Below the pieces are notes generated by a model. It was not told where the DNA came from, did no database searches, and saw only the letters and a program-made list of their open reading frames with translations. The position numbers were made by a program, and so were the translations under genes. Positions 61,529-63,422 of a stretch of 64,000 bases of DNA are shown here, one piece after another (positions within the stretch are counted from its first letter, which is position 1; each line of letters begins with the position of its first letter). Origin of the DNA: Escherichia coli (GTDB lineage Bacteria > Pseudomonadota > Gammaproteobacteria > Enterobacterales > Enterobacteriaceae); assembly GCF_001677475.2 (NCBI RefSeq), contig NZ_CP015229.1; one strand, 5' to 3'.

Positions 61529-62362
61529 GTGACTGAATTAACCAAAGAGCAATTAATCGAAGAAGCCAAATTAAAAATAGCGATTGCGAAATGCTACCCC
61601 AGTTCAGGGATGGCACGGGTAGAGGGCGAGTTATTCAAAATTGCACTGGCATCGCTGGAAGCAGAACCAATAGGTGCTTTCCACATTGTAGAACAGCAAG
61701 TTGACGGAACAAGTTACTATATCAAGGATGGGGAATGGCCTATTGATACTGGGATTATTGAAGTCTACGCCGCCTCACCGATGACGGTAGTGCTGAACGA
61801 TGTATCTGGACCTCTTGCTCTTGCTTACAAAGAGCTTACACCTGCGATTATGCGCAACCATATCGCTGTATTCGAACGATACGGAATAACCCCAAACGAT
61901 AGCATTACTACAATTCATGCGCTTCGAATTGCGCTGGATGGCATAGAGCGGAGCGACGCCATGCTTCATGGACGTCAGCCATGCCATCAAATTACCGCCT
62001 CAATGGCAAAAGCTATTGCGCTTAAACTTGGTGCCGAACTGAATAACGAAGAAGCAGAGATTTTCGCGGATGGGTATAACACCGCCATGCTTCATGCCGA
62101 AAACTTTCGGGAAAATAAGAATTCGTCAACCAATAATTTTCGGATAACCTCGGAAACGTCAACCAACTCTCCGGCAATCCCTGATGAGGTGTTGTCCGCA
62201 ATCCTGAAGGTCGCCAGGCTTCGTGCAGATTTCGATGCTTCTGAAGGTGACAGGCGAGGTATCGGTGGTTGTCTGGATGAGGCCGAGCAAGAACTTATCG
62301 TTACCATTAACAAATACGCCAGTCAGATCGCAGTAGAAGCGATACAGGGGGCGCACCAATGA
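61529..62362 (+). CDS. hypothetical phage protein (277 aa), function unknown
   Basis: Largest ORF of nin-like array, GTG start after hairpin ggccgcccgaaagggcgg; no recognisable catalytic motif. Confidence 0.6.
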   Translation: MTELTKEQLIEEAKLKIAIAKCYPSSGMARVEGELFKIALASLEAEPIGAFHIVEQQVDGTSYYIKDGEWPIDTGIIEVYAASPMTVVLNDVSGPLALAYKELTPAIMRNHIAVFERYGITPNDSITTIHALRIALDGIERSDAMLHGRQPCHQITASMAKAIALKLGAELNNEEAEIFADGYNTAMLHAENFRENKNSSTNNFRITSETSTNSPAIPDEVLSAILKVARLRADFDASEGDRRGIGGCLDEAEQELIVTINKYASQIAVEAIQGAHQ

Positions 62363-62471
62363 GCCGGCCCGATGCATTTGCAGGCGTTGCTATAGCTATT
62401 GCTTTTCCAGTATATGTTATTTGTCGGTGGGGGTAAAAACGTTCGCCGGAATTCACACCAAGGGAGGGAAT

Positions 62472-62576
62472 ATGTCGGATGATATTTCACTGGTAATGGA
62501 AGGCGCTCTGGCTGTTATTGCTGTTGTGGGTGTTTACTGCCTGGTTGTGTTTTTGATGGATCGCCTGGGGAACTGA
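62472..62576 (+). CDS. 34-aa single-TM hydrophobic peptide
   Basis: MSDDISLVMEGALAVIAVVGVYCLVVFLMDRLGN with strong SD AGGGAGGG 3-4 nt upstream; not in track (<60 aa). Confidence 0.5.
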   Translation: MSDDISLVMEGALAVIAVVGVYCLVVFLMDRLGN

Positions 62577-62820
62577 ATTCATTCCGTATGGGAATTCCCA
62601 TATCGGGCAAAAACGGTTTGCTGTAAAGCGAGAGTTAAGTAGAATTGCTGCGGGTGCTTGAGGCTATCTGCCTCGGGCATGCCGCCGTAAGGCAGACAGA
62701 GAAAAGCCCCAGTTAACATTACGCGTCCTGCAAGACGCTTAACATTAATCTGAGGCCATATCTATGACTTGCACACGTAGGTTAGCCTCTTACGTGCCGA
62801 AAGGCAAGGAGAAGCAGGCT

Positions 62821-62976
62821 ATGAAGCAGCAAAAGGCGATGTTAATCGCCCTGATCGTCATCTGTTTAACCGTTATAGTGACGGCACTGGTAACGAGGAA
62901 AGACCTCTGCGAGGTACGAATCCGAACCGGCCAGACGGAGGTCGCTGTCTTCACAGCTTACGAACCTGAGGAGTAA
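62821..62976 (+). CDS. hok: Hok/Gef-family type I toxin (HokD/RelF-like)
   Basis: 51 aa MKQQKAMLIALIVICLTVIVTALVTRKDLCEVRIRTGQTEVAVFTAYEPEE; AAGGAG SD; in-frame upstream ATG at 62764 gives a 70-aa mok-like extension. Confidence 0.85.
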   Translation: MKQQKAMLIALIVICLTVIVTALVTRKDLCEVRIRTGQTEVAVFTAYEPEE

Positions 62977-63014
62977 GAGACCTGGCGGGGGAGAAATCCC
63001 TCGCCACCTCTGAT

Positions 63015-63422
63015 GTGTCAGGCTTCCTCAACGCACCCGCACTTAACCCGCTTCGGCGGGTTTTGTTTTTTCTGTGCATTCTGGTTTACAATTCGCACGC
63101 CAGCCTGAACAACTGGCACCTGCTGCGCCAGCAGAGACAACCGATGGCGCACGATACCAAATTACACAATTCTGATGATTCTGCCGTTTTTGCCAGCAGG
63201 CACGGGCTGCGTTCTCACGCATTCAAATATGACTGGTATCAGCACGATCCCTGCACTGAAGAACAGGCCGAATGGCTGATTCATAACTACCGCAGACGTG
63301 GGTATGAGTTTAAGAAAGCCCTCAGTCTCGATTATCGTCACTGGATAATCTACGTCAGACTCCCTTATTCCGAACGCCCGCCGCGTCCATCCCGCACATT
63401 CCAGCAACGGATCTGGAGGTAA
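63015..63422 (+). CDS. hypothetical protein (Rem-position), start uncertain
   Basis: ORF after hok; likely start at ATG 63144 (92 aa). Confidence 0.45.
   Translation: MSGFLNAPALNPLRRVLFFLCILVYNSHASLNNWHLLRQQRQPMAHDTKLHNSDDSAVFASRHGLRSHAFKYDWYQHDPCTEEQAEWLIHNYRRRGYEFKKALSLDYRHWIIYVRLPYSERPPRPSRTFQQRIWR

Follow-up and report, generated by a model that had tools for sequence, protein, structure and literature searches.

The window analysed here, a stretch of 64,000 nucleotides of Escherichia coli DNA, carries on its + strand a small gene, orfB, at positions 62472..62576. The gene starts with ATG at 62472, ends with a TGA stop codon at 62574-62576 and encodes a 34-aa peptide with a single predicted transmembrane (TM) helix, MSDDISLVMEGALAVIAVVGVYCLVVFLMDRLGN. 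The hydrophobic helix covers approximately residues 7-29; it is preceded by the acidic N-terminal tail MSDDIS and followed by one basic residue (D30-R31), the net charge of the whole peptide being -3. The best 19-residue Kyte-Doolittle window of the peptide scores 2.72, a value exceeded only by hok among the 356 ORFs of 30-60 codons present in the window. The Shine-Dalgarno (SD) sequence of orfB, AAGGGAGGGA, occupies positions 62460-62469, 3-4 nt upstream of the ATG. For the evaluation of its strength, all ATG-started ORFs with a minimum of 20 codons, from either strand of the window (n = 1,156), were scored for pairing with the anti-SD, and the orfB SD ranked first with a duplex energy of -11.8 kcal/mol. 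The SD region is free of structure, as it folds no better than its shuffled versions (z = +0.91), and the 316-nt region around orfB does not fold beyond the level of shuffles either (z = -0.79). This combination of SD strength and hydrophobicity is far from chance. Thus, the original prediction was right to describe a small hydrophobic single-TM peptide of 34 aa with a near-consensus SD among the strongest in the window, and the gene behind it is genuine.

The genes flanking orfB are all read from the + strand and represent the early rightward (nin) region of a lambdoid prophage. Their order is a gene of the DUF551 type, orfA, orfB, hokD, a gene for a 92-aa protein, DUF968, RusA and then Q or its equivalent. 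The first of them, an early-region gene with a DUF551-type C-terminus (61529..62362, +), encodes 277 aa, starts with GTG and joins two PHROG families, 6847 in its N-terminal part and 14306 in its C-terminal part. The annotation that the NCBI pipeline (PGAP) gives to the equivalent ORF is restricted to its final 288 nt, labelled a partial DUF551 pseudogene; the gene may be either a recombinant fusion or mis-annotated. The TGA of this gene overlaps the ATG of orfA (62359..62436, +), a hydrophobic micro-ORF of 25 aa, MSRPDAFAGVAIAIAFPVYVICRWG. The ATGA overlap couples orfA translationally to the upstream gene. A non-coding spacer of 35 nt, containing the orfB SD, separates orfA from orfB (62437..62471, +).

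Downstream of orfB, a near-perfect palindrome of 23 bp, CCGTATGGGAATTCCCATATCGG, starts 8 nt past the stop codon (62584..62606). It forms a hairpin that is not followed by a U-tract, with fold z-scores of -2.75 on the + strand and -3.19 on the - strand. In most relatives the palindrome is a perfect 24-mer; it might serve to stabilise RNA or to bind a protein. The hok/mok/sok locus (62652..62976, +) follows, as the original prediction had noted. The sok model of Rfam (RF01794) matches 62652..62826 with 110.6 bits (gathering score, 59), the 5' end of the hok mRNA lies near 62652, mok occupies 62764..62976, and hok, named hokD by PGAP, occupies 62821..62976. Hence, the end of orfB is located approximately 75 nt upstream of the hok mRNA start. 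The only intrinsic terminator found in our scan lies just 3' of hok (63045..63062). A sub-threshold match to the isrK model of Rfam (62985..63066; 26.7 bits, gathering score 50), which ends in this terminator, most likely reflects only the 3' fold-back and terminator region of hok.

The original prediction considered orfB to be unannotated, which proved wrong. At the matching position of a RefSeq locus that is 99.8% identical to the window over 62300-62800, PGAP places the hypothetical protein WP_001278459.1. The product is WP_001278460.1 in O157:H7 strains and WP_001278450.1, WP_001278454.1 or WP_072149359.1 in other strains. In the current RefSeq record of E. coli O157:H7 Sakai, the homologue is ECs_5710 (YP_009502606.1) of prophage Sp6, and its product is identical to that of the window in 33 of 34 residues (V8A). 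This Sakai copy was published by Hücker et al. in 2017 as the novel translated gene XECs145 (PMC5597208). ECs_5710/XECs145, as well as WP_001278460.1 and WP_001278450.1, represent the same gene as orfB: it lies between the DUF551-type gene and hok/mok and has an identical SD, and no substantive difference was seen apart from the start codon of the published model. That model has 54 aa and starts 57 nt further upstream at a non-canonical codon, overlapping the end of orfA (PMC5597208). The SD-ATG start chosen by PGAP, which gives 34 aa, agrees better with the sequence.

The published ribosome profiling (Ribo-seq) data concern the Sakai allele, which is one residue off the window orfB. In LB medium, XECs145 showed an RNA RPKM of 79.1, a Ribo-seq RPKM of 346.1, a ribosome coverage value (RCV) of 4.35 and a coverage of 0.99; in BHI medium, the corresponding values were 121.3, 150.1, 1.14 and 0.84, and under combined cold and salt stress they were 73.3, 1.1, 0.01 and 0.37 (PMC5597208). 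The inclusion threshold of that study was an RCV of >=0.25, and its authors predicted an inner-membrane location for the product (PMC5597208). Since Sakai has several orfB copies, the reads assigned to XECs145 may multi-map. Absence of translation, which the original prediction had named as grounds for doubt, is thus not what the near-identical Sakai copy shows. Accordingly, orfB is an already known gene, annotated as a hypothetical protein and supported by published evidence of translation. Nothing relevant was found when the full texts of papers were searched for the orfB accessions or peptide, and the peptide is absent from the supplements of the microproteome preprint. A 256-nt module containing orfB is present in 673 of 5,426 complete E. 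coli genomes (about 12%) at 1,467 places; among the matches listed, the carriers are mostly STEC/EHEC strains, often with several copies each.

For the study of orfB conservation, 96 related loci were gathered from IMG/VR, RefSeq genomes and metagenome assemblies. The SD-ATG motif GGAGGGAATATG is present in the window and in all 96 loci, and every complete orfB copy among them is 105 nt (34 codons) long. The copies comprise 14 distinct DNA versions with 36 variable sites, 18 of which are third codon positions. The pooled Nei-Gojobori analysis of the 14 versions gave a pS of 0.217 and a pN of 0.049, with a dN/dS ratio of 0.20. Of the six frames, only that of orfB lacks stops in all 14 versions. 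Ratios of 0.7-1.9 were obtained for four others, and the antisense frame that shares the wobble positions of orfB gave 0.31, but contained stops in all 14 versions. Among the variant alleles, 22 are synonymous and 19 non-synonymous, against an expected synonymous share of 26% (binomial p = 1.3e-4).

The most divergent orfB comes from a human gut metagenome (locus L083). It differs from the window copy at 22 of 105 nt (Sd 11.5, Nd 9.5, dN/dS 0.19), yet its length, its SD and its stop codon are kept, the last in spite of a TGA to TAA change. The original prediction had proposed to look for loss of the reading frame in homologous prophages. Instead, the 34-codon frame, the SD and the stop are retained throughout, L083 included. 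We conclude that orfB is a bona fide protein-coding gene whose peptide sequence is under purifying selection.

The neighbouring orfA is likewise under purifying selection: between the window and L083 it differs at 14.3 of 18.2 synonymous sites and at 11.7 of 56.8 non-synonymous sites. In each of the five upstream sequence contexts encountered, its ATG overlaps the TGA of the preceding gene, and the block of homology between prophages starts approximately 15 nt 5' of orfA. The phage records with orfA relatives number 99 and include Stx phages, BP-4795, VT1-Sakai and phages of Klebsiella, Salmonella and Shigella. These relatives have 27 aa with the pattern M-x-W-P-E-A-F...Y-x-I-C-R-W-G and are positioned after DUF551, EaA or Ead genes. 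PGAP does not annotate orfA in the annotated relative, and orfA is a conserved, mostly unannotated micro-ORF. Its clustering with DUF551 proteins of 121 aa was rejected as a clustering artefact, as the orfA sequence is absent from those proteins. In E. coli E41 (L094), an IS5-family element, ISKpn26, is inserted in orfA (1450..2430), with orfB and hokD intact.

We also considered that orfB might be the C-terminal remnant of a two-helix protein of 74 aa (orfA-orfB) split by a frameshift, or that it is translated but functionless. In-frame orfA-orfB fusions of 74 aa do exist (P0005, P0008 and P0009; L087 1053..1277 and L088 556..780). They result from the gain of a single G in the run GTGGGGGTAA, where orfA ends, and may represent either true slippage variants or errors of assembly. 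Some lineages also carry radical changes in orfA, namely L17P within the helix of the window copy and A17D in the commonest haplotype. However, the fused forms occur on 1-2 contigs each, against at least about 1,000 for the 34-aa forms, and the two-cistron layout was present in 21 of 21 haplotypes of the analysed loci. The spacer is 35 nt long in the window and 33 nt in L083, where it also differs in sequence and places the two ORFs in another relative frame, with the SD unchanged. This difference in length indicates that orfA and orfB are separate cistrons, and the idea of orfB as the tail of a broken 74-aa gene was rejected on the grounds of spacer length and relative frame, which differ between lineages. 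Moreover, the strong SD and the ATG of orfB are invariant, and purifying selection acts on the gene; orfB is kept where orfA is frameshifted (L003) or interrupted by the insertion sequence (L094), and orfA in turn is widespread without orfB. A HMMER search with the fused form against 1.84 billion representative proteins returned only 12 matches, which were close orfB variants, orfA relatives and one weak match to a protein of 1,397 aa; a longer relative was not found. For these reasons we hold the remnant or functionless origin to be highly improbable.

Neither orfB, orfA nor the 74-aa fused form had a significant match in PHROGs, NCBIfam, PADLOC, Pfam or PDB, and for orfB no Pfam match appeared even at E <= 10. 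A paralogue, orfB', was found by tblastn against phage genomes. It encodes 29-30 aa, (V/M)LVLKCALAIAAVMAIYCLAVVLMDRLSD or (V/M)LVLKCALAITAVMAIYCLAIVLMDRLSD, and is 57% identical to orfB over the helix and the C-terminus. In mEp460_ev081, HannyBb and Tritos it is preceded by an AGGAGG SD of its own, starts with GTG and lies directly 5' of the hokD promoter; phage Evi gave a tblastn match too. Copies of orfB' are found in Rac/Qin-like prophages (L098 2495..2587; L101 about 3556..3648; also L097 and L102-L111). The two genes share the C-terminal MDRL motif, conserved Y-C and D-R residues, an SD and a position 5' of the hok promoter. Unlike orfB, orfB' lacks the acidic N-terminal tail, has K in place of E10, starts with GTG and is accompanied neither by orfA nor by the palindrome. 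In its sequence, the orfB of L083 stands between the two (AVMAIYCL), in support of true homology of orfB and orfB'.

The orfB' segment is far commoner than orfB, as it occurs in 1,652-1,895 of 5,426 complete E. coli genomes (about 35%), with roughly 2,257 copies. No annotation on the + strand was seen in any listed or fetched copy of orfB', and in HannyBb minus-strand ORFs are annotated over its site. The reading frame is intact in eight of eight distinct versions with a dN/dS of 0.38; the evidence of selection is weaker than for orfB, and one antisense frame is mostly open too. An intact ATG-started copy, MLVLKGTLAIAAVMTIYCLIVVLMERFSD, is located on the S. flexneri plasmid NZ_CP026794.1 (L112 1498..1587), approximately 290 nt upstream of icsP. 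In this plasmid, the one of the Shigella/EIEC type that was inspected, orfB' adjoins a decayed 5' remnant of the hok mRNA that has no Rfam match. Plasmid matches to orfB' amount to 143 records, 124 of them from Shigella. When one genome per species was scanned for a degenerate DNA motif common to orfB and orfB' (100,044 species), only E. albertii and two short MAG contigs were matched, all of the orfB' type. The family is therefore essentially confined to Escherichia, and no wider family is available to exploit.

The proximity of orfB and orfB' to hok raises the question of whether these genes belong together. In several prophages (L087-L092, L095 and 11 complete genomes), ibrB/ibrA on the opposite strand follow orfA, orfB and the palindrome in place of hok. 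The replacement breaks approximately at the hok +1 position; the former hok promoter region is kept in a mutated form, and the palindrome is retained in both the hok and the ibrBA contexts. The ibrB/ibrA genes encode an IbrB-like ParB-type protein and a PAPS-reductase/DUF3440 protein (L089 3271..5126; L095 2904..4759). The reverse arrangement is seen in phage vB_Apl-pPE4 (L099), in which orfA is joined directly to the hok promoter and orfB is lacking. To judge from match coordinates only, the orfA match likewise adjoins the hok homology in vB_EcoM-606R7 and phiSTEC1589-Stx1c. The alignment of the window with L099 places orfB on a cassette of approximately 175 bp between 11-bp direct repeats, GGG(T/C)AAAAACG. 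The left repeat is GGGTAAAAACG (62431..62441, +) and the right one is GGGCAAAAACG (62605..62615, +), which is GGGTAAAAACG in most relatives. The orfB-less L099 has a single repeat copy, at its orfA-hok junction, which suggests insertion or deletion of the cassette by recombination at the repeat. As ibrBA takes the place of hok in some prophages, orfB is not part of the hok locus; it is a separate module, separable from hok.

A functional link is a different matter. Because the majority of orfB and orfB' copies immediately precede a hok promoter, the peptides could be tied to the adjacent hok/sok, either as a membrane partner or modulator of Hok or through translation and the hairpin, which would condition read-through into the hok promoter region. 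Such a link is suggested by the 664 of 675 orfB-carrying records that have a place covering both orfB and the hok 5' region, by the same position of the 57% identical paralogue 5' of hokD in 1,652-1,895 genomes and in E. albertii, and by the conserved hairpin that separates the stop codon of orfB from the -35 region of hok. Against it, orfB is kept where ibrBA replaces hok, orfB' is kept where hok is replaced (L105) or decayed (Shigella pINV), and there are phages with hok and orfA but no orfB (L099). The distance between the stop codon and the -10 box also varies, being ~63 nt for orfB and ~28 nt for orfB', and, the family being young, the linkage may reflect only common descent. We regard a functional tie to hok/sok as unlikely, though it is the strongest of the alternatives. 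Bolder still, and correspondingly more doubtful, is the idea that orfB and orfB' form an Escherichia-specific family of micro-membrane proteins that is a third, protein component of prophage hok/sok modules. If this were true, orfB and orfB' might modulate the insertion or toxicity of Hok, the phage might control Hok-mediated killing during induction, and orfA might be a further partner.

The original prediction had likened orfB to a typical type I toxin or a membrane modulator, and the first of these comparisons was not supported. According to the toxin view, orfB would encode a membrane-damaging peptide whose translation is normally blocked by an antisense or divergent sRNA; its small size, its single TM helix and its location in a prophage beside a known type I system agree with this. 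A consensus scan of the + strand between 62200 and 62472 detected no promoter-like site for orfB, and the same scan of the - strand detected none that would give an RNA overlapping orfB. The single promoter-like site on the - strand, 62437 to 62409, is directed away from orfB and stands at the chance level (one found, 0.6 expected). It should be noted that the scan is insensitive: it also misses the known hok and Sok promoters and thus does not prove an antisense promoter absent. The best candidate promoter found by eye, TTTAC(A/C)-17-GATATG, is without the invariant final T.

Other features of the locus speak against a toxin as well. The orfB SD is open (z = +0.91), and orfB lies 35 nt past another translated-looking ORF within an operon, with neither a promoter-like site of its own in the scan nor a structured 5' UTR that occludes the SD. 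No Rfam family matches over orfB, the sok model matching only the downstream region. The synonymous sites of orfB vary freely (pS 0.22-0.46), at odds with the constraint that an antisense RNA would impose. Well-known type I toxins are cationic, whereas this peptide is acidic, and BLASTP gave no alignment between orfB and the neighbouring Hok. The high ribosome occupancy in exponential LB and BHI cultures, with an RCV of 4.35 in a healthy culture in LB, argues against repression in growing cells (PMC5597208). Since the orfB peptide is acidic and well translated in growing cells, we consider a type I toxin unlikely. orfB is a member of the early operon of the prophage, not a self-contained toxin-antitoxin cassette.

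orfB was also compared with known systems. Hok/Gef proteins (PF01848) are, like orfB, small prophage-borne membrane peptides with a single helix. However, orfB has no similarity to them and no Pfam match, and its locus has no mok-like leader, fold-back mRNA or Sok-like RNA; its peptide lacks the periplasmic Cys-containing tail of Hok and is acidic, while Hok is basic. The toxins TisB, LdrD, IbsC, ShoB, DinQ and ZorO have 19-35 aa with one hydrophobic helix. These toxins are cationic and are expressed from dedicated promoters; their mRNAs mask the SD within long, structured 5' UTRs, and each toxin is paired with a cognate sRNA. Thus, orfB resembles them in size and helix, but their regulatory features were not seen at orfB. 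A second group comprises AcrZ, MgtS, MgrB, PmrR, CydX and KdpF, proteins of ~30-50 aa that have a single TM helix and bind a larger membrane protein. Small inner-membrane proteins of the AcrZ/MgtS type were found by Ribo-seq or tagging, are translated efficiently and have no enzymatic domain. Regulators of the AcrZ/MgtS/MgrB type are the class that orfB most resembles in its presumed mode of action, although orfB has no homology to them, is prophage-borne and is confined to Escherichia. The Pf3 coat protein has a short acidic N-terminal tail and a single helix followed by a basic residue, and is inserted in the YidC-type manner with the N-terminus out and the C-terminus in. The likeness of orfB to it is limited to these topology features, as the orfB product is no component of virions and is unrelated in sequence to the Pf3 coat.

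Taken together, we favour, with moderate confidence, the view that orfB is an early-region (nin) gene of Escherichia lambdoid prophages whose product is an inner-membrane accessory micro-protein modulating another membrane protein, and not an antisense-controlled toxin. As no characterised family matches orfB, its mechanism can be deduced from composition and context only, and on these grounds a membrane modulator appears the most plausible class. The gene shares the orientation of the flanking early genes, no promoter or terminator of its own was detected, and it would be translated very efficiently from its near-consensus, unstructured SD. The peptide would then insert in the inner membrane. 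The acidic N-terminal tail and the single Arg after the helix suggest YidC-type insertion in the N-out/C-in orientation, in line with the positive-inside rule and the precedent of the Pf3 coat. Once inserted, orfB may act as a small "moron-like" accessory protein that binds or modulates a host or phage membrane protein, and presumably does not permeabilise the membrane under antisense control. We infer insertion, topology and action through a partner by analogy with these known proteins. Two observations count against this account: RNA was detected in an uninduced lysogen, which early transcription driven by PR alone does not explain, and the position of most orfB and orfB' copies next to hok leaves room for a functional link with that gene.

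The results make orfB a well-supported example of a prophage micro-protein, with a strong ribosome-binding site, purifying selection and published Ribo-seq data. They remove the unsupported label of a type I toxin from the gene, separate it from the hok locus and place it in a small family in which its paralogue is far commoner. These findings about orfB do not change any general picture. Their most useful by-products are the widespread orfB', which is without annotation in the copies examined, and the conserved orfA. Together, orfA and orfB provide a defined candidate pair for work on the small membrane proteins of EHEC prophages.
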